Virus record (IMG/VR): IMGVR_UViG_3300032245_001763
Coordinates: 1-64,000 of that record
DNA: 64,000 bases
Direction: 5' to 3' (one strand)
Source: a virus
Lineage: Duplodnaviria > Heunggongvirae > Uroviricota > Caudoviricetes
In this document: in pieces, positions 7,534 through 55,129 of the stretch
How the letters are laid out: every line of letters starts with the position of its first letter
How positions within the stretch are numbered: the stretch's first letter is position 1
Translations under genes and position numbers: made by a program
The notes under the pieces: model-generated
The model's database searches: none
What the model saw: only the letters and a program-made list of their open reading frames with translations
What the model was told of the DNA's origin: nothing

Positions 7534-7604
7534 GGGGTTGTGGTGTAAATGAAAACACAATAGATTATGGTCTATATATGGAGGTTTAAATCCTTCCGAC
7601 CCCA
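7534..7604 (+). tRNA. tRNA with a 6-nt anticodon loop (ATAGA-TTATGG-TCTAT); identity uncertain
   Basis: Perfect acceptor GGGGTTG/CGACCCC, D-stem GTGT/ACAC, T-arm GGAGG-TTTAAAT-CCTTC. Confidence 0.5.
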
Positions 7605-46949: not shown

Positions 46950-47213
46950 TTGAAAATGTTTATGTATAAAATTAACGAAGTTTTTGATCATTCTGTCATT
47001 AGATCTGAAGCTAATTTCGATCGTGCATCTGATGCAGCATATAAATTTGCACTTTTTAAATTTGAAATTGATGAAGATGGTCATTCTTCTAGAGTAGAAG
47101 GCTGGGAAAGGTCTTCTTGTTCGATTGAAATCGAATTTAAAAAATATATTCGTAATGGTCACGAACATGTTTATAATTTTACCATTGCAGTTAGAAAGAG
47201 TGAAAATGAGTAG
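46950..47213 (+). CDS. hypothetical protein
   Basis: ORF track, 87 aa. Confidence 0.35.
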   Translation: MKMFMYKINEVFDHSVIRSEANFDRASDAAYKFALFKFEIDEDGHSSRVEGWERSSCSIEIEFKKYIRNGHEHVYNFTIAVRKSENE

Positions 47214-47646
47214 TTTATTTGAATTGTTAAAGTCGGATTTGAAGCAAGCAATTTTGAAACAAGATTCTACTAAAAAAAATATTCTTAGAGTTGTATTAGC
47301 TGAATGTGGAAGATTGGGCTTAGGATTATCTAATTCCAATGTTCATGATGCCGATATTCAGAAAATAATTATGAAATCTATTCAAAATAATTTAGAAGTA
47401 ATGTCGATAGCTCCTTCAGAAGAACTTGAAAAAGAAAATGAAATTTTAAAATCTTATGTTCCTAAAATACCAACTCAGCAAGAATATAAAGATTTGTTAA
47501 ACACAGAAGAAGTTAGAAATTTAATTCTTGCTGAATTTAGTGAAGGTTTGGCAATGAAACAAGTTGCATCTTATTTGAAATCAAAAGATATTCCTATGGA
47601 TGGTAAAATTGTTAAATCAATAATTGCTGAAATTAGAAATCAATGA
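47206..47646 (+). CDS. hypothetical protein (start set to ATG 47206, preceded by TTAGAAAGAGTGAAA)
   Basis: The ORF track begins at 47125 inside the previous ORF; the internal ATG with the recurrent AGAAAG leader is preferred. Confidence 0.45.
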   Translation: MSSLFELLKSDLKQAILKQDSTKKNILRVVLAECGRLGLGLSNSNVHDADIQKIIMKSIQNNLEVMSIAPSEELEKENEILKSYVPKIPTQQEYKDLLNTEEVRNLILAEFSEGLAMKQVASYLKSKDIPMDGKIVKSIIAEIRNQ

Positions 47647-48200
47647 TTGATCCAAATAATATTACAAGATACGATTTGTCTGATTATGAACTTGAAGAAA
47701 TTATTTTATTTTGGGTTCTTGCTGCTGGGAAAAAGGCTACAACTGCCTCTTTATCTTTGGATAAATTTCTTGACAACAAATCAATTAAACCTTTTGAATT
47801 AATTAAATTAAAGGGTTTAATTGATTTGCCATTTTTGATGAAAAGTTGTGGAATTGGTTGTTTTAACAATAAATCTATTACTTTTTGGCAATTAGCAAAT
47901 TCAAATTTGGATTTAAGGTCTTGTACAGCAGAAGATCTTGAAAAGATAAAAGGCATTGGAATGAAGACAAGTAGATGTTTTATCATTCACAGTAGGCAGA
48001 ATGCTAGGTATGCTGGTTTGGACACACATGTGTTAAAATATTTGTCTTCATTAGGATATAATGTTCCAAAAAGCACACCAAATGGTAAAAAATATCTTGA
48101 AATAGAAGAAATTTTCTTGCAATTAGCAGAGAAAAGTGGTAAAACAATTGCCGAATTTGATTTGGAAATTTGGCGAAGTTATTCTAACAAAATTATTTAA
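47643..48200 (+). CDS. HhH-GPD superfamily DNA glycosylase-like protein (endonuclease III/AlkA-like)
   Basis: LEKIKGIGMKTSRCFIIHS is a helix-hairpin-helix with a Gly-rich turn, followed by D (GLDTHV). Confidence 0.45.
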   Translation: MIDPNNITRYDLSDYELEEIILFWVLAAGKKATTASLSLDKFLDNKSIKPFELIKLKGLIDLPFLMKSCGIGCFNNKSITFWQLANSNLDLRSCTAEDLEKIKGIGMKTSRCFIIHSRQNARYAGLDTHVLKYLSSLGYNVPKSTPNGKKYLEIEEIFLQLAEKSGKTIAEFDLEIWRSYSNKII

Positions 48201-48211
48201 GGAGTTTTAAA

Positions 48212-48505
48212 ATGAGTGTAAAGTTTATTAAGTTTAAGTGTGGTGATGAAATTATTGGCAAGGTCATTAAGAATGATAAAAAAGATGTTGTAACTATTGA
48301 AAATAGTTTAAGAATTATTCTTACTCATGAAGGTATGGGAACAATTCCATATTTGCCATTTTGTAAAAGTTCAAAACACGATTTTCCAGCAACAGAAATT
48401 CTTGTAATGGATGATGTTGATAAGGAAATGGAAGATAGATATAATCAAAACTTTTCAGAAATTGTGATTCCATCAGCAAATGCAAGCACTATTAAGTTGA
48501 GATAA
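48212..48505 (+). CDS. hypothetical protein
   Basis: ORF track, 97 aa. Confidence 0.45.
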   Translation: MSVKFIKFKCGDEIIGKVIKNDKKDVVTIENSLRIILTHEGMGTIPYLPFCKSSKHDFPATEILVMDDVDKEMEDRYNQNFSEIVIPSANASTIKLR

Positions 48506-48507
48506 TT

Positions 48508-48885
48508 ATGAGTGAACCATTAGTAACCAAACAAGTAATTGTTGTAAGAAAAGATTTGAAAATGAGAAGAGGCAAGGAAATTGCACAATGCAGCCATGCC
48601 TCTATTTCTTTTCTTACTAAAAAAATGCAAAATAATATACCGTTAACAGAAGTAGAAAATACATGGTTAAATGATAGTTTTTCCAAAATATGTTTATATG
48701 TTAATTCTGAAGAAGAATTGCTAAAAGTTCACAATGATGCTCTTGAAAAAGGTTTAGAATCAAATTTAATTACTGATTCTGGTCGTACTGAATTTCATGG
48801 TGTTCCTACAAAAACTTGTTTGGCTATAGGTCCAGACTATTCTGTTAAAATTGATGAAGTAACAAGAAGTTTACCCTTGTATTAA
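48508..48885 (+). CDS. pth2: peptidyl-tRNA hydrolase, PTH2 family
   Basis: VIVVRKDLKMRRGKEIAQCSHAS matches the PTH2 signature (vVRtDL.MgkGKiaAQcsHA). Size is about 115-125 aa. Confidence 0.7.
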   Translation: MSEPLVTKQVIVVRKDLKMRRGKEIAQCSHASISFLTKKMQNNIPLTEVENTWLNDSFSKICLYVNSEEELLKVHNDALEKGLESNLITDSGRTEFHGVPTKTCLAIGPDYSVKIDEVTRSLPLY

Positions 48886-48900
48886 AGAAGTTGAATTCAA

Positions 48901-49605
48901 ATGAAAATTGGATATAAAGCTACCTACGACTATATTTGCAAAGATCATAAATTTGAAATAGGTCAATCTTATGAACTAAAAAAACCTCCAATTCTTTGCA
49001 AATATGGTTTTCATTATTGTGTAAATTCAAAAGATGTTTTAGAGCATTATCCAATTCGACATAATTTCCGTCTATTGGAAATTGAAGATCTTGGTGAATG
49101 TATTCATTCTGACGATAAATCAGTAACGAACAAAATTCGTATTGTAAGAGAAATTTCAAAAGAAGAATATTATTCTTTGTTTAATGTGGTTAATAACGAA
49201 TTAACAATTACTAATAAACATGGCAGTTGGGAAAGACGTACGTTTGATAAAAACAATAATGAAATTTTCTACCAAACTTCATTTGGAAATTCGGAAAAAC
49301 GAGAATATGATGAAAGAAATAATCAAATTTATTTTGAAAATTCAAATGGTTTTTGGATAAAATATGAATATGATAAAAACAATAATATAATTTATTTATA
49401 TAATAAATGTGGTTTTTGGGAAAAATATGAATATGATAAAAACAATAATATAATTTATTTTGAAAATTCAGATGGTTATTGCCTAAAACGCGAATACGAT
49501 GAAAATAACAATATTATTTTTTATGAAGATAGTGAAGGCAATTGGACAAAGCGTTCATACGATGAAAATAACAATTGTATAAAAGTAGAAAGAAATAAAA
49601 CATGA
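48901..49605 (+). CDS. GFHYC-domain plus MORN-variant repeat family protein
   Basis: MKIGYKATYDYICKDHKFEIGQSYELKKPPILCKYGFHYC, then YDKNNNIIY repeats. Confidence 0.65.
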   Translation: MKIGYKATYDYICKDHKFEIGQSYELKKPPILCKYGFHYCVNSKDVLEHYPIRHNFRLLEIEDLGECIHSDDKSVTNKIRIVREISKEEYYSLFNVVNNELTITNKHGSWERRTFDKNNNEIFYQTSFGNSEKREYDERNNQIYFENSNGFWIKYEYDKNNNIIYLYNKCGFWEKYEYDKNNNIIYFENSDGYCLKREYDENNNIIFYEDSEGNWTKRSYDENNNCIKVERNKT

Positions 49606-50189
49606 AAATTGGATATAAAGCTACCTACGACTATATTTGCAGAGATCATAAATTTGAAATAGGTCAATCTTATGAATTACAAGGAACACCAATTCCTTGC
49701 GTTTATGGATTTCACTATTGTCAAAATCCAATCGATGTTTTACATTATTATCCAATTCAACATGATTTCCGTCTATTAGAAATCGAAGATATTGGCGAAT
49801 CAATTACTCAAGGTAATAAATCAGTAACAAATAAGATCCGTATTATTCGTGAAGTTCCAAAGGAAGAATATTACCAGCTATTTGGTGTTGTTAATAATAA
49901 ACTGACAATAAGTGCTGGTATATTTGGTGCTTGGGAAAGACGAACATTTGATGAAAATAACAATGAAATTTTTTATCAAAATTCAGATGGTAATTGGGAA
50001 AAACGTGAATATGATGAAAGAAATAATTGTATTTATTATGCAACTTTATCTGGGTTTTGGATAAAACGTGAATATGATGAAAGAAATAACGAAGTTCGTT
50101 TTGAAAATTCAAGTGGTTTTTGGATAAAACAAACATTTGATAAAAATAATCGTAGAATTAATTATGAATCTAATTATGACAAAGTTTGA
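49602..50189 (+). CDS. GFHYC-domain plus MORN-variant repeat family protein
   Basis: MKIGYKATYDYICRDHKFEIGQSYELQGTPIPCVYGFHYC. Confidence 0.65.
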   Translation: MKIGYKATYDYICRDHKFEIGQSYELQGTPIPCVYGFHYCQNPIDVLHYYPIQHDFRLLEIEDIGESITQGNKSVTNKIRIIREVPKEEYYQLFGVVNNKLTISAGIFGAWERRTFDENNNEIFYQNSDGNWEKREYDERNNCIYYATLSGFWIKREYDERNNEVRFENSSGFWIKQTFDKNNRRINYESNYDKV

Positions 50190-50244: not shown

Positions 50245-50889
50245 ATGGGAATTTTATTAAAAAATCGATGTTTAGTTTTAAACAAAAGTTGGAGTCCTAT
50301 TGGGATAATATCATTACAAAGAGCAATTACTTTACTTTGTTCTTATGATGAAAAAGATAATCCAAAAGCAAAAATAATTGATGGTGGATCTGGTTCATAT
50401 CAATTATTTTCTTGGAATGAATGGTCAAAATTAACTCCATCTGAAAATGAACTTTTTATTCAAAGTTCTCATACAAGATATAGAGTGCCAGAAATAATTA
50501 TTTTAACTGGATTTGATAAAATTCCATCTCCAAGAGTGCATTTTAGCAGGTCTACTATCTTCAAAAGAGATAATTATATTTGCCAATATTGTGGTAAAAA
50601 AGTTGATAAGGATTCTGGAACAATTGATCATATTTTGCCAAGAGCACAAGGTGGCGTTACAAGTTGGACAAATTGTATTTTAGCTTGTATGGGATGTAAT
50701 TCTCAAAAAGCGGATCGTAGACCTGAACAGGCTTTTAGAACAGATAAAAATAAGAATTGGAACGGACCTTCTCCAATGAAATTAATGTCTATTCCTAAAA
50801 AGCCAAAATTTAATTTAATTAAATATGATAAAGGTCAGATGCCAAAATCATGGACTAATTTTATCCAAGATGGATCTTTTCATGAATGA
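50245..50889 (+). CDS. HNH endonuclease
   Basis: CQYCGKKVDKDSGTIDHILPRAQGGVTSWTNCILACMGCNSQKADRRP is the HNH core (C..C...H...N...C..C). Confidence 0.7.
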   Translation: MGILLKNRCLVLNKSWSPIGIISLQRAITLLCSYDEKDNPKAKIIDGGSGSYQLFSWNEWSKLTPSENELFIQSSHTRYRVPEIIILTGFDKIPSPRVHFSRSTIFKRDNYICQYCGKKVDKDSGTIDHILPRAQGGVTSWTNCILACMGCNSQKADRRPEQAFRTDKNKNWNGPSPMKLMSIPKKPKFNLIKYDKGQMPKSWTNFIQDGSFHE

Positions 50890-51482
50890 TAAAAAGCCAA
50901 CATCTTACAATAAGATGTTGGCTTTTTTTAAGGATTATTATGATTAATTTTAAATTAATTTCTGATTCAATTGATTTTTATTCTAAATATTCTTTTGTTA
51001 GAATAGAAACACCTTGGATTGTTCCGTCTTATATAGACAATATTACTAAGCCAAAAGATGCTATTCCATTTTCTTTAAATAATAAAGATGCTAGATTGGT
51101 TGGCTCAGGTGAGCAAAGTTTTTTGCTTCAATATATGAATGGATATCTGCCAAAAGGCAAATTTCAAACTGTTACACCTTGTTTTAGAGAAGAAAATCTT
51201 GATTTTCTTCATAGAAATTATTTTATTAAAAATGAATTAATTCAAACTTGTGATGTTAACGAATCTAATTTAAAAATAATTGTTTCTATTTGTTTTGATT
51301 TTTATAATCAATATTTAAATGGTAAAGCTGAAATTTTAAAAACTAATGAAGGTTATGATATAACTTTTAATGGAATAGAATTGGGATCTTATGGAATAAG
51401 AAGTTGTGATTTTTTAGATTGGATTTATGCAACAGGATGTGCGGAACCAAGATTAAGTTCTATTTTAAATTTAAAGGAGTAA
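50886..51482 (+). CDS. Class II aminoacyl-tRNA-synthetase-like catalytic core (PheS/PylS-like class IIc), truncated to 198 aa
   Basis: A motif-2-like FQTVTPCFREENLDFLHRNYFIKNELIQ (compare PheS R.E....H...F.Q.E) and a motif-3-like GIELGSYGIRS. Confidence 0.35.
   Translation: MIKSQHLTIRCWLFLRIIMINFKLISDSIDFYSKYSFVRIETPWIVPSYIDNITKPKDAIPFSLNNKDARLVGSGEQSFLLQYMNGYLPKGKFQTVTPCFREENLDFLHRNYFIKNELIQTCDVNESNLKIIVSICFDFYNQYLNGKAEILKTNEGYDITFNGIELGSYGIRSCDFLDWIYATGCAEPRLSSILNLKE
50891..50930 (+). terminator. Rho-independent terminator (AAAAGCCAACATCTTA/TAAGATGTTGGCTTTT plus T-run)
   Basis: Perfect 16-bp stem followed by TTTTTTTA. Confidence 0.65.
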
Positions 51483-51484
51483 TT

Positions 51485-51742
51485 ATGGGATATCATCTTT
51501 CAACAATACCAAAAGGTATTGTTGGTGAATTTTCTAAAATTGAAGAAGAATTTTTTGAAGCTAAAGATGCATCTATGCAAAACGATTCTGTTTTAATGTT
51601 AGTTGAATTATCAGATATGATTGGTGCAATAGAAGAATATGTTAAAAAATGGAATATGTCTATTGATGATTTAAAGAGTTTTTCAGATAAAACTAAATTA
51701 GCCTTTAAGGATGGAACGAGAGTTTCTAAACAATCTCTATAA
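51485..51742 (+). CDS. putative MazG-like all-alpha nucleotide pyrophosphohydrolase
   Basis: EFSKIEEEFFEAKD...LVELSDMIGAIEEYVKKW carries the paired EExxE/ExxD helices. Start moved to ATG 51485 after the upstream stop. Confidence 0.3.
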   Translation: MGYHLSTIPKGIVGEFSKIEEEFFEAKDASMQNDSVLMLVELSDMIGAIEEYVKKWNMSIDDLKSFSDKTKLAFKDGTRVSKQSL

Positions 51743-53000
51743 AATTTTCTTTTTTCAAAACATCTTTTATAAAGTCAAGATATCTATCAGCAGTTTTTTC
51801 CCAAATATTTTCTTGTATATATTTGTTGTTTAATGATATTAAATTGTTTTTATAATTATGATCTGAAAATATTTTATCAATTTCTTTTGAAAGTTCTTCA
51901 GCACTGCTTGGTCTGGGTACAACATTATTTAAATCATCAAACATATTGCTTTCTGATGTTATTACTGGTATTTGGTTTGCCATTGCAACACGCACCGCAC
52001 CAGATGCTCCGTAAACAATATTATTTGGATTAGTTACATAAGGAAATAATGCTAATTTTGCTGTTCTTAAATAATTGTTAATTATTTCGTCTGAATTATA
52101 TTTTCTTATAATTGCTATATTGTCATATAAGTTAAATTTTTCAATAATTGATTCAAGATAATTTTGGTATTCAGCATGTGTTCCAACTGCATTTGCTGAT
52201 TCAGAGCAAAGATAACAATAAAATATATCTTTGTATTTTTCTGGAAATTTATTTTTTAATATTCCTACTGCTTCAATTGCCCTATCTACACCTTTGTAGA
52301 AAAATCCAAAACCAAATTGTACTATTGCATATGGTGTTTGGAAAGTATTCCACAATTCTTTTACATCGTTAAATTCTACACAACCATGAGGTATAACACG
52401 TATTAAATTATTGGTGTGTCCAAGGTTTTCAAGAGCACCTTTTCCAGAATTAGAATGAACAATAATATTTTTTGCTACAGATGTGAATATTGTTTTATCC
52501 ATGTGAGATTTATACACAGAATGTAAAACAATAGCATATGGAATATTTTCTAATTCTTGAATAAACTTCAAATAATGGGTGGCTTTTGGAAATATTCCAA
52601 ATTCATGCTGAATAATTACAAAATTTGGCTTCCAATCTTTTATTTCTTTTGAAAGATTTTTTAAAGTTTCACCTCTTACCCAGCATCTTGAAACATTTTC
52701 TTCAACATCATGTGATAAATCAGCTTTTTCTTCAATTTCTGAAAATATTTTTATTTCATTTACTTTAGATCTAAGTGCGTCAACCAAATATTTTGAATAT
52801 GTAGAAATTCCACAAGGAGTTCTCCAATTACATACAACTGCAATTTTCATTTTTTCTGGACTCATTGTACCTATTCTTTTTCCAATAATATTTTCTTCTA
52901 CATTATCTACTTTGTACAAATTATCTAAATTTGATACTTGAACTTCTCTATCAAATACACCTTTAATACGATCATTGTTATCAGTAAATATATACTTCAT
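51726..53000 (-). CDS. Glycosyltransferase, GT4-like (GT-B fold)
   Basis: C-terminal FPYVTNPNNIVYGASGAVRVAMANQIPVITSE resembles the GT4 E..G..l.EAma.G.PvI motif. Confidence 0.45.
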   Translation of the reverse strand: MKYIFTDNNDRIKGVFDREVQVSNLDNLYKVDNVEENIIGKRIGTMSPEKMKIAVVCNWRTPCGISTYSKYLVDALRSKVNEIKIFSEIEEKADLSHDVEENVSRCWVRGETLKNLSKEIKDWKPNFVIIQHEFGIFPKATHYLKFIQELENIPYAIVLHSVYKSHMDKTIFTSVAKNIIVHSNSGKGALENLGHTNNLIRVIPHGCVEFNDVKELWNTFQTPYAIVQFGFGFFYKGVDRAIEAVGILKNKFPEKYKDIFYCYLCSESANAVGTHAEYQNYLESIIEKFNLYDNIAIIRKYNSDEIINNYLRTAKLALFPYVTNPNNIVYGASGAVRVAMANQIPVITSESNMFDDLNNVVPRPSSAEELSKEIDKIFSDHNYKNNLISLNNKYIQENIWEKTADRYLDFIKDVLKKENFIEIV

Positions 53001-53055
53001 ATTGTATAACTTTCTTTATTATTTGTTGAAATAATAGAGTTAATTAATTAAGATT

Positions 53056-54513
53056 TTAAGATTTATTCTTTATTCCAGCTTTAATTGCATTTAAAGCTGT
53101 CGCTGTCCAAGCGTTTGATGTTTCGGGATTTGCATCAAATGCCTCTACATTATATGGTGTTGTTGATTGTAAAATTCCAGTAACAGTCTTGTTCGATCCA
53201 ATCTCATTACCGTTCATTACAAATTTAACAGTACCAGTCACGCCAGATTGAGCTTCAGTAAACAGAGAATTGAATTGAACGCCTTTAACATCATTGATTG
53301 TTGACAAATTTGACATGTTAAATTGTGCCAAATCACCATTAGTGTTTGAGGTAATAAATTTACTTAACGTACTGTGAGTCTGACTCATATCTCTAGCAGA
53401 CAAGGAGCCTGTATAATCTAATGATAAATCATCAATATAAATAGCAGATCCTGTTGCAAGTGGACCAAATCTAATTACTGATTGAGGCGTTAATGAATAT
53501 GTGAATTGTTGATAAGTTGTTGTTAAATTTAAAGTGTTTGTTGTTCCATTTATGATTATTGGAAAAGTTGAAGTTGATGCACTTCTAGCCCAAAACGACA
53601 TTGATACTGCATCTGTTGTAAATTCCATCCATACAGAAGTGTTATTAAAAGCAAGACAGGCTGGAGAAGTACGAAAACTGCTTGTTGATCTTGCAATATA
53701 TCTAAAATTGAAAGCTGTCTCATTTAAATAGCTAATATTTGTAACTCCAAGAGGAATTAAAAATTCATGTGGATCAGTAAATGTTGCATCAAATGATGTT
53801 GATAATACAGTTCCATTGCTGTTTGTGAAATTTACTGTATCATCAGTTGTTGGCGATAACATTTCAATTCTTGGAATATACAACTCTGTTCCAATTTTTG
53901 CATTATTTCTTGTTCCTGTATTATCAACGACATAAAAGTCATCGACTCGATATTCGCTGTTTCCAGCAATATAGAGTGTGAAAGTACCATCATAATTCAT
54001 TGATGTGCTACTTGTCCCGCGTTCAGTTCCATCAACATAAAGTCTAATTGGAGTTCCGGCAGATGGAGTAATCGGAATTAATAATTCAATGTGTCTCCAG
54101 GTATTTGCAAGTCCAGAGTATGGTGTTGAATAAACTGCAACTGAATTTAAGCTAAATCTATAATCAAGACTGTTAATTAGAATTCTCAATCCCTTTGTCG
54201 TGTCAGTTGGAGTTGAATTAGTCAATCTAATATCAATGTTACTTTCTTGACTTCCAAATCTCAGATTAAATCCAACAACAAAATAAGTTACACCAGAAGA
54301 AGAAACTGCTTTTTTTAATTGTCCTGGATTTTTACCTGGAACAACAGATGCAGAGTTTCCGCCAAATCTTCCAGGTTTAGCAATCCAAGAGCCAGCAACA
54401 GTATTAAAATTTCTTGCCAGTCCAGTAGTAATTGAATCAGTTGGATCATTTCCTGCCGTGTTTAATGCGTAATGTCCGTAATTTTCAAATCCTTCTAAAA
54501 ACCTAATTGCCAT
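53056..54513 (-). CDS. Large structural (fibre/receptor-binding-like) protein, paralogue of 57715-59499
   Basis: The N-termini MAIRFLEGFENYGHY and MGIIFFDSFDHYTHH are alike. Both are S/T/N-rich with a beta-rich composition. Confidence 0.45.
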   Translation of the reverse strand: MAIRFLEGFENYGHYALNTAGNDPTDSITTGLARNFNTVAGSWIAKPGRFGGNSASVVPGKNPGQLKKAVSSSGVTYFVVGFNLRFGSQESNIDIRLTNSTPTDTTKGLRILINSLDYRFSLNSVAVYSTPYSGLANTWRHIELLIPITPSAGTPIRLYVDGTERGTSSTSMNYDGTFTLYIAGNSEYRVDDFYVVDNTGTRNNAKIGTELYIPRIEMLSPTTDDTVNFTNSNGTVLSTSFDATFTDPHEFLIPLGVTNISYLNETAFNFRYIARSTSSFRTSPACLAFNNTSVWMEFTTDAVSMSFWARSASTSTFPIIINGTTNTLNLTTTYQQFTYSLTPQSVIRFGPLATGSAIYIDDLSLDYTGSLSARDMSQTHSTLSKFITSNTNGDLAQFNMSNLSTINDVKGVQFNSLFTEAQSGVTGTVKFVMNGNEIGSNKTVTGILQSTTPYNVEAFDANPETSNAWTATALNAIKAGIKNKS

Positions 54514-55129
54514 TGTTTATACTCCAATCACTGTAGCCAGCGTAATCTGAATTCCATAATGTCTTTAATTTGTTTTCTCTTTCTGTTGTCCATAGTTCGT
54601 TTGCTTGATTGTCTGTACTTCCAATTTCTGGATAAGCAATTGCAGGATTGACCCATGTGCCAGTAATTGGAGTAAAGTAATCAAGGAAATCAAGATTAAT
54701 ACCATTCAATTGATTTCTGTAATGGCTTTGAGATCTATAGAAATGAACAACTTCATTGCCTATTAATTTGTGCATCGGGCAAAACACATTGGGAATGACT
54801 GGATTATTTTCTAACAGAAAAGGATTACTTTCATTTGCTGTCAAAAAATCTAAATAAGAATCAATTGATTCCCAGTATTTTTGATATCCAGAATCATACA
54901 TTTCTTTTGATGCAGCATACATTGAACAAAGTCTATCCCAAGGATGACGTTTTGATACATATACATGTGTATATTCAATATTGTTTAATTCTGAAATATC
55001 GCAACTATGTCGATGAGATCCTAATCTGTAATTATCAGGATCATGTAAATCTAAATATTGTTCAGTTGATCTGCTCGCTGTTCTTTCAACAGGGCAGTAT
55101 ACTATTTTTAAATTTGGGTAATATATCAT
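54503..55129 (-). CDS. Sulfotransferase-family protein
   Basis: A 3'-PB-like KRHPWDRLCS (R.P.DR..S) and an N-terminal YCPVERTASRS (5'-PSB-like). Confidence 0.45.
   Translation of the reverse strand: MIYYPNLKIVYCPVERTASRSTEQYLDLHDPDNYRLGSHRHSCDISELNNIEYTHVYVSKRHPWDRLCSMYAASKEMYDSGYQKYWESIDSYLDFLTANESNPFLLENNPVIPNVFCPMHKLIGNEVVHFYRSQSHYRNQLNGINLDFLDYFTPITGTWVNPAIAYPEIGSTDNQANELWTTERENKLKTLWNSDYAGYSDWSINNGN

Follow-up and report, generated by a model that had tools for sequence, protein, structure and literature searches.

Among stand-alone cores of the class II aminoacyl-tRNA synthetase (aaRS) superfamily, AsnA, HisZ, PoxA and the carrier-protein ligases have each brought unexpected chemistry. 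In phages, an all-alpha NTP pyrophosphohydrolase feeds NMP to a partner enzyme in the pairs T4 gp56 and gp42, and MazZ and PurZ; to our knowledge, no pair of the gp56/gp42 or MazZ/PurZ type includes a class II adenylate-forming core. Here we describe a minimal class II aaRS-like core that is paired with a MazG/HisE-like protein, the two being encoded by a two-gene module in the window, i.e. the 64,000-nucleotide stretch of a Caudoviricetes virus (IMG/VR record IMGVR_UViG_3300032245_001763) that was analysed. A review of aaRS paralogues, which covers AsnA, HisZ, PoxA, the amino acid:carrier protein ligases and SLIMP, contains nothing like this module (PMC9437257), and the pairing or fusion of such a core with a MazG/HisE-like subunit appears to be undescribed. 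The family is catalogued but uncharacterised, and it is mislabelled: full-text literature searches found no experimental or biochemical characterisation of any member, a comparative survey of jumbo phages makes no mention of it (PMC7824862), and the genome paper of Citromicrobium phage RXM calls the product of g121 a SerRS (PMC8953757). Its members are routinely labelled histidyl- or seryl-tRNA synthetase, and in large phages they are classed as 'translation machinery'.

The aaRS-like gene had been read in the earlier note as encoding 198 aa; an open reading frame of that length exists mechanically at 50886..51482, but its start was misassigned. The true start is almost certainly ATG 50940, which gives a 180-aa product (50940..51482; the module and its signals all lie on the + strand) with a conserved start and the class II motifs. 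We place it there because MI[ND] at ATG 50940 is the N-terminus in 34/34 close homologues, because independent public assembly gene calls, on contigs with an identical partner protein next door, give the same 180-aa product, because an AAGGA ribosome-binding site, read from the sequence, lies 5 nt 5′ of this ATG (50930..50934), and because the 54 nt ahead of it (50886-50939), which fall within the longer frame, contain a stable hairpin and U-run. RNA folding defines this element as a hairpin (50896-50922) followed by a T7 run, together resembling an intrinsic terminator (50896..50929); the hairpin core has a dG of -22.2 kcal/mol and a z-score of -6.97, and 0/200 shuffles were equally stable. 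A scan for the terminator consensus overlooked it, since its T-run is paired with an A-run lying upstream. The terminator-like element comes straight after the stop codon (50887-50889) of the HNH gene (50245-50889; Pfam E 5e-14); it closes that gene and marks the 5′ edge of the two-gene module.

Sequence comparison confirms that the class II resemblance of the aaRS-like protein is far beyond chance. The protein matches PHROG 4806 over its full length (E 2.3e-36), and the family profile finds SerRS in the PDB at E 8.5e-7; the match of the window protein to Pfam tRNA-synt_2 (22.1 bits) falls under the gathering cut-off of 25, and 34/66 family members match this model at E<=0.01 (best 7.9e-9). 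The predicted structure (AF2 pLDDT 93.5) has the antiparallel beta-sheet core fold of class II synthetases, and 175/180 residues align to the catalytic core, leaving no extra domains; the earlier description of a stand-alone, truncated class II core that keeps its motifs and has neither an anticodon-binding nor an editing domain is thus borne out.

Conservation was assessed in an alignment of 66 members that are only 30-54% identical to the window protein. Invariant throughout are S56, E58, P80, C81, R83, F95, K97 and E99, together with D140, E147, S150, G152, T165, P170 and R171; P25 (kept in at least 90%), Q59, R154 and Y163 are nearly so, and E85 is kept in at least 90% of the 34 close homologues. 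These residues fall into a motif 1 proline (P25), an amino-group motif (S56-G-E58-Q59), motif 2 (TPCFREE...YFIKNE, with R83, E85, F95, K97 and E99), an Mg strand (D140, E147, S150 and R154) and motif 3 (YATGCAEPRL; Y-A-T165-G-C-A-E-P170-R171), so that the motif 1 proline, the fRxE...F of motif 2 and the arginine of motif 3 that define the superfamily are all present. The motif-2-like segment picked out in the earlier note was correctly recognised. The segment GIELGSYGIRS, which the same note took for motif 3, was not: it is the Mg-binding strand ahead of the true motif 3, and lines up with D475...E482...R489 of AspRS and E248-LSSMGI-R255 of AsnA. The two signs on which the class II assignment had been made to depend were both found, i.e. 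a class II profile match and conserved Arg and Glu residues among homologues (R83, E99, E147 and R171 in all 66). The invariant positions presumably correspond to the class II ligands of ATP, Mg and the amino group of the substrate; because they are invariant, there is a strong argument that the core would form an acyl-adenylate.

To judge from profile and motif comparisons, the core is a separate lineage of the class II superfamily for which no single known family can be named, because the tests disagree: it lies about equally far from SerRS, PheS, AspRS and PylS, and has a local motif in common with AsnA. With hhalign, the probability of a match is 91% for E. coli SerS, covering SerS residues 185-330 only, 79% for E. 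coli AspS, and 1.5% for E. coli AsnA, where the alignment is confined to a 15-residue stretch around ELSSMGIR. Among the 66 members, Pfam models were matched in the order tRNA-synt_2 (34), tRNA-synt_2d (24) and tRNA-synt_2b (3), and NCBIfam models in the order pheS (34), serS (23), AspRS (8), PylS (7), SrmL (4), EpmA (2) and AsnA (2); the NCBIfam matches are weak, with all aaRS equivalog scores far under cut-off. A likeness to PheS and PylS, noted earlier, is a fair description in so far as pheS is the commonest of these weak matches. The hisS and hisZ models were matched by 0/66 members, and 'histidyl tRNA synthetase', as PHROG names the family, finds no support.

SerRS deserves separate comment as the source of the GenBank label 'putative seryl-tRNA synthetase'. 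The serS model TIGR00414 is matched weakly in 23/66 members (best E 1.7e-7), far under its cut-off, and the N-terminal coiled-coil arm with which SerRS binds tRNA is absent from the core, so the label is unsupported as a statement of membership. The motif 2 loop of the core is also 7 residues shorter than that of SerRS (R-to-F spacing 12 vs 19), and a hairpin that SerRS carries between ExxS and motif 3 is deleted. By comparison, the D-7-E-7-R spacing and the motif 2 loop length of AspRS equal those of the core. The substrate clues likewise point in two directions: the S-x-E and F-x-K-x-E motifs are SerRS-like, whilst R154 stands at what we take to be the position with which AspRS, AsnRS and AsnA recognise a side chain that is acidic or an amide. 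Other stand-alone relatives are more remote. The amino acid:[carrier protein] ligases of the Bll0957/Atu2573 type are zinc-dependent proteins of ~300 aa with a phosphopantetheinyl carrier protein as partner, and no carrier-protein gene is linked to the core in the 67 lineages examined; PoxA/EpmA (GenX) and the PheS-related 'mystery ligase' SrmL are much larger, have other partners (EF-P for EpmA) and show marginal sequence similarity.

The second gene of the module (51485..51742) encodes an 85-aa, three-helix MazG/HisE-like protein with a conserved metal motif. The aaRS-like gene ends at TAA 51480-51482 and the partner ATG follows 2 nt on, at 51485; its AAGGAG ribosome-binding site, read from the sequence (51474..51479), lies within the last aaRS-like codons. 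The close spacing of stop and start, and the position of AAGGAG inside the upstream gene, suggest that the two genes are translationally coupled. The partner matches phrog_6408 (E 6.9e-27) and, weakly, Pfam PRA-PH (13.5 bits, cut-off 21.3), and its best structural match is HisE. Twelve positions are 100% conserved in 78 distinct partner sequences (Y3, H4, I8, K18, E21, E22, E25, E41, D44, T70, F74 and R79), among them the complete metal motif E21-E22-x-x-E25-(15)-E41-x-x-D44, which is carried on helices 16-31 and 35-56. The MazG superfamily signature, ExxE-(12-28)-ExxD on two helices, is therefore present, and we take E22-x-x-E25-(15)-E41-x-x-D44 to be the metal-binding signature of the MazG/all-alpha NTP pyrophosphohydrolase superfamily. 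An extended N-terminus (G-Y3-H4...I8) is also conserved, whilst K10, in the IPKG loop, varies among the 78 sequences. The protein likely belongs to the MazG/HisE group, and it may be a truncated domain that is completed by the synthetase-like subunit.

Across phages, the MazG/HisE-like gene is the conserved partner of the core, nearly always paired or fused with it. Our locus set comprises 88 loci (80 IMG/VR contigs, 7 GenBank phages and the window), which form 67 lineages at <=70% identity. The earlier note had rightly seen a MazG-like gene beside the aaRS-like gene, but treated it as a mere neighbour, although a partner on the same strand occurs in 84/88 loci. The two genes are adjacent in 65/88 loci, in either order (partner downstream in 44/88, upstream in 21/88); the partner is fused to the core in 3/88, lies 0.2-2 kb away in 16/88 and is absent within 10 kb in 4/88. 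Gaps between the core and partner domains are typically 0-26 nt. Natural fusions, with the core N-terminal and the partner C-terminal, number 9 among the 150 best cluster representatives; in these, the N-terminal segment of the partner begins ~10-13 residues past R171 of motif 3. In Microcystis phage Ma-LMM01, gp131 likewise combines core and partner in one protein. A small gene whose product is 43-48% identical to the window partner stands directly 5′ of the core in the phages muut (E. coli), PsgM04F (Pseudomonas), CcrColossus (Caulobacter) and CR3 (Cronobacter), the same range being found between the window phage, a huge phage, and E. coli, Pseudomonas and Caulobacter phages. The gene 5′ of the core in Acinetobacter phage Berthold is annotated as MazG-like, and two MazG genes precede the module in Citromicrobium phage RXM.

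A third conserved gene was not found: within +-4 kb, none occurs in >5/67 lineages. The HNH gene that the earlier note reported next to the core is there, but its presence is incidental (8/88 loci), and it was rejected as a functional partner on this count, as were YqeY (2/88), PTH2 (3/88) and an Ogg-like gene (at most 8/88). YqeY and PTH2 genes do lie near the module in the window, and a YqeY gene is directly 3′ of it in the phi92-like phage muut. Extra domains of longer family members provided no clue, being RNA_pol_A_CTD in CcrColossus and otherwise unassignable extensions. The module has no PADLOC match to known defence or anti-defence families, and Rfam revealed no RNA element near it, with tRNAs at 1-22.5 kb only.

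The aaRS-like family is large: at 50% identity it falls into about 1,470 clusters, of which 1,226 have E<=1e-10, and its members are nearly all 175-205 aa long. It occurs almost only in phages: there are 276 phage records, whilst a search of 185,579 prokaryotic species (one genome each) gave only 21 loci, mostly on MAG contigs. Carriers include phi92-like and rV5-like phages of E. coli, T4-like phages of Acinetobacter, phages of Caulobacter, Brevundimonas, Microcystis, Cronobacter and Pectobacterium, and three uncultured phages of 595-642 kb. In cultured phages the pair is often found among genes of nucleotide metabolism. In muut and PsgM04F it neighbours RNR genes, and a helicase gene stands upstream; in RXM it neighbours RNR and ThyX genes, a dNMP kinase gene and two MazG genes; and in phage Berthold it falls within the nrdC.10/NrdH/glutaredoxin region. 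Islands around metagenomic loci contain NAMPT, NMNAT-Nudix, ThyA, dCMP deaminase and NADAR genes, as well as the RNA ligases Rnl1 and Rnl2, RlaP, cREC-REC and HD_4, each gene type being present in <=14/67 lineages. The location of the module in nucleotide-metabolism clusters of several cultured phages is reminiscent of the T4 gp56/gp42 and MazZ/PurZ pairs, and we know of no modified base in phages that carry it.

The aaRS-like protein is, on this evidence, probably one half of a two-protein enzyme and not a tRNA-charging synthetase. In the reading that we prefer, to which we assign a probability of roughly 0.45, a class II adenylate-forming core and an NTP-handling MazG/HisE-like subunit would make up a two-subunit, tRNA-independent enzyme acting in one nucleotide-linked pathway. 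The genes at 50940-51482 and 51485-51742 would then encode the two subunits of a single phage-specific enzyme, and the linkage and fusion of the genes suggest that their products form a complex. The core, which probably dimerises through motif 1, would bind ATP-Mg together with a small carboxylate, for which an alpha-amino acid is the likeliest candidate; pyrophosphate would be released as the acyl-adenylate forms. From there, an acyl or adenylyl group would pass to a small acceptor rather than to tRNA, as we infer because the core has no tRNA-binding domain. The partner would be a truncated NTP pyrophosphohydrolase of the MazG/HisE type with intact metal ligands; it would bind a nucleoside triphosphate, or some related nucleotide with a pyrophosphate linkage, and would probably cleave it. 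The tight pairing and occasional fusion would place both active sites on the same nucleotide-linked pathway, for which two routes can be envisaged. In one, the partner would supply or remove a nucleotide that reacts with the adenylate, yielding an aminoacyl-nucleotide or a dinucleoside polyphosphate of the Ap4N type; SerRS is one of several class II enzymes with a well-established ability to make Ap4A. In the other, the partner would process the product of the core. The step that couples adenylation to MazG chemistry is speculative, because the stoichiometry of the latter (NTP -> NMP + PPi) does not tie it to adenylation in any obvious way. Some observations sit less comfortably with the two-subunit reading: the few loci in which the partner is missing within 10 kb (4/88), the RNA-repair genes in the surrounding islands (Rnl1, Rnl2, RlaP and cREC-REC), the PTH2 or YqeY genes close to a few modules, and the sub-threshold Pfam scores of the partner.

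Of the alternatives, that of an AsnA-like amide or small-molecule ligase, in which a carboxylate (e.g. the side chain of aspartate) is adenylated and attacked by ammonia or a small amine without any macromolecular acceptor, draws on the Mg strand. Here E147-L-G-S150-Y-G-I-R154 is identical at 6/8 positions to E. coli AsnA E248-L-S-S-M-G-I-R255, the ELxSxGIR strand being nearly the same in both, and the D-7-E-7-R spacing is that of AspRS D475/E482/R489, in which the Arg at position 489 presumably binds the acidic side chain of the substrate. The second side-chain ligand for aspartate in AspRS, which we take to be K198, aligns with Leu62 of the core. Although there is a weak NCBIfam match to archaeal AsnA, AsnA models are matched by 2/66 members only, the window protein scores 14.5 bits against a full-length AsnA cut-off of 322, and hhalign to the full-length protein recovers just the short stretch mentioned above. 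AsnA is, moreover, a 330-aa enzyme that acts alone, whereas the core has 180 aa and a MazG-like subunit that this proposal leaves unexplained; thus, whilst AsnA provides a precedent for a class II core that works without tRNA (PMC9437257), we consider such a ligase unlikely. A genuine minimal synthetase, be its specificity seryl, histidyl or another, that aminoacylates a tRNA of the host or the phage, binding it in trans or by the core itself, seems to us rather improbable. It would be consistent with the intact catalytic motifs, with SerRS as the closest profile and structure match, with the tRNA-rich window (31 genes), with the tRNA-binding-type YqeY and PTH2 nearby and YqeY after the module in muut, and with the SerRS or HisRS annotations in databases and papers. 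The 180-aa core has, however, no tRNA- or anticodon-binding domain; YqeY and PTH2 recur in very few loci; the equivalog scores are spread over four specificities; the sole conserved associate is a protein of the nucleotide-pyrophosphatase type, not of an RNA-binding type; no tRNA-Ser is present among the 31 tRNAs of the window, which lie 28-50 kb from the module; and phage RXM carries the module with a single tRNA-Trp gene (PMC8953757). On these same grounds, the idea in the earlier note that the protein charges or modifies an atypical phage tRNA finds no support. Two further arguments were discarded: the shorter motif 2 loop does not speak against tRNA binding, as the loop of AspRS is equally long, and net charge is uninformative, both proteins being acidic (median pI 5.35 for the core and 5.15 for the partner), because canonical synthetases are acidic as well. 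Some room for a link to RNA or tRNA is left by the RNA-repair genes in the islands and by PTH2 or YqeY near a few modules.

Two other proposals assign the partner a different place. If the core were a regulatory or sensor subunit, it would control the MazG/HisE-like hydrolase by binding ATP or an amino acid non-catalytically; the hydrolase, as the real enzyme, might for instance clear alarmones or non-canonical NTPs. The structural match of the partner to HisE is suggestive here, as the steps of histidine synthesis in which HisZ and HisE take part follow one another, and some surrounding islands contain HD_4 (RelA/SpoT-type) genes. HisZ itself is a precedent for an aaRS paralogue that serves as an allosteric subunit, in the HisZ-HisG step, but it is non-catalytic and without adenylation activity (PMC9437257), whereas in the core the motif 2 and 3 arginines and the Mg-ligand positions are invariant. 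Invariance of the catalytic positions despite strong divergence favours catalysis over a HisZ-like role; together with the lack of any hisS or hisZ match in the 66 members and of a linked HisG-like gene, this makes a sensor subunit quite improbable. More doubtful still is a protein aminoacylase or adenylyl-transferase resembling PoxA/EpmA, whose target would be a host protein or the partner itself, through Y3, H4 or the basic C-terminal tail. The fully conserved Y-H pair in the extended N-terminus would suit such a target, as would its location only ~10-13 residues after R171 in the fusions; nevertheless, the most conserved features of the partner are its MazG metal ligands, for which a protein acting only as a substrate would have no use, the IPKG-loop lysine (K10) varies, and no EF-P or EpmB-like genes are linked to the module.

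Regarding the locus as a two-gene module changes its annotation, drops a false inference of tRNA charging and defines a clean pair for biochemistry, in a widespread family with members in phi92, muut and other tractable E. coli phages. With all three motifs in 180 residues, the aaRS-like protein is a natural test of the minimal functional class II active site. A more far-reaching proposal, which we advance tentatively and consider somewhat unlikely as a whole, is that this heteromeric phage enzyme makes or destroys an undescribed nucleotide-amino acid conjugate or dinucleoside polyphosphate, through which many large phages would reprogramme the nucleotide or alarmone pools of their hosts, or blunt nucleotide-based defence; the core, comparable in length to the engineered 'urzymes', would then have no smaller counterpart among natural class II adenylating enzymes.

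The module formed by the synthetase-like gene (50940-51482) and its MazG-like partner (51485-51742) is preceded in the window by a free-standing HNH endonuclease gene, which lies just upstream and is closed by a terminator of its own, a strong hairpin with a T7 run (gene and terminator together, 50245-50929); this gene looks like an inserted mobile gene. Further upstream, positions 48901-50189 encode two tandem paralogues of 234 and 195 aa, each with an N-terminal DUF7666 domain and a C-terminal part made up of YD/RHS-like repeats (NNN[EI]I[FY]... motif). These are preceded in turn by a block of four genes in one direction (47206-48885). The first of them, at 47206-47646, is YqeY-like (Pfam E 9e-7), and the second, at 47643-48200, encodes an Ogg-HhH-like glycosylase; a 97-aa protein of unknown function (48212-48505) follows, and then PTH2, a peptidyl-tRNA hydrolase of the archaeo-eukaryotic type (48508-48885; E 1.7e-33). 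PTH2 is likewise located upstream of the synthetase-like gene, at less than 1 kb, in the IMG/VR contigs L060 and L070.

Downstream, a minus-strand block (51726-55129) runs convergent; it encodes a GT1 glycosyltransferase (51726-53000), a Laminin_G_3-like protein of 485 aa (53056-54513), and a 208-aa unknown, with a PS_pyruv_trans gene beyond it on the same contig. Within 10 kb either side of the module in the IMG/VR loci (L008-L087), the NAD-salvage genes NAMPT and NMNAT-Nudix recur, as do ThyA, dCMP deaminase, NADAR, cREC-REC, RlaP, and HD_4 genes and RNA ligases of both the T4 and Rnl2 types, each being present in at most 14 of the 67 lineages.

The window carries 31 tRNA genes, all on the plus strand, between 1181 and 22509, of which 23 have Rfam support; none of the 31 is a tRNA-Ser. 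The anticodon was left uncalled in two (3012-3085 and 7534-7604), and several are over-long, including one for Asn (1619-1710, 92 nt), one for His (5554-5639, 86 nt), and one for Trp (1181-1260, 80 nt). In the Citromicrobium phage RXM locus (L007, 2446-3816) the module has a pair of MazG genes immediately upstream, and between these two lies the sole tRNA gene of the phage, Trp-CCA, at genome position 66,594-66,667 according to PMC8953757.

Variant arrangements of the core and its partner were also observed. In gp133 of Caulobacter phage CcrColossus (L002, 4743-5597) the synthetase-like core is fused at its N-terminal side to the C-terminal domain of the RNA polymerase alpha subunit (RNA_pol_A_CTD in Pfam, E 3e-6), a fusion found in none of the other lineages examined. 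The IMG/VR contig L034 has two identically scoring partner copies (5386-5625 and 5849-6088) downstream of a single synthetase-like gene. Four of the 66 family members match, weakly, NCBIfam NF051887 ('PheS-related mystery ligase SrmL'); SrmL may be another orphan stand-alone class II core worth comparing with the synthetase-like family.
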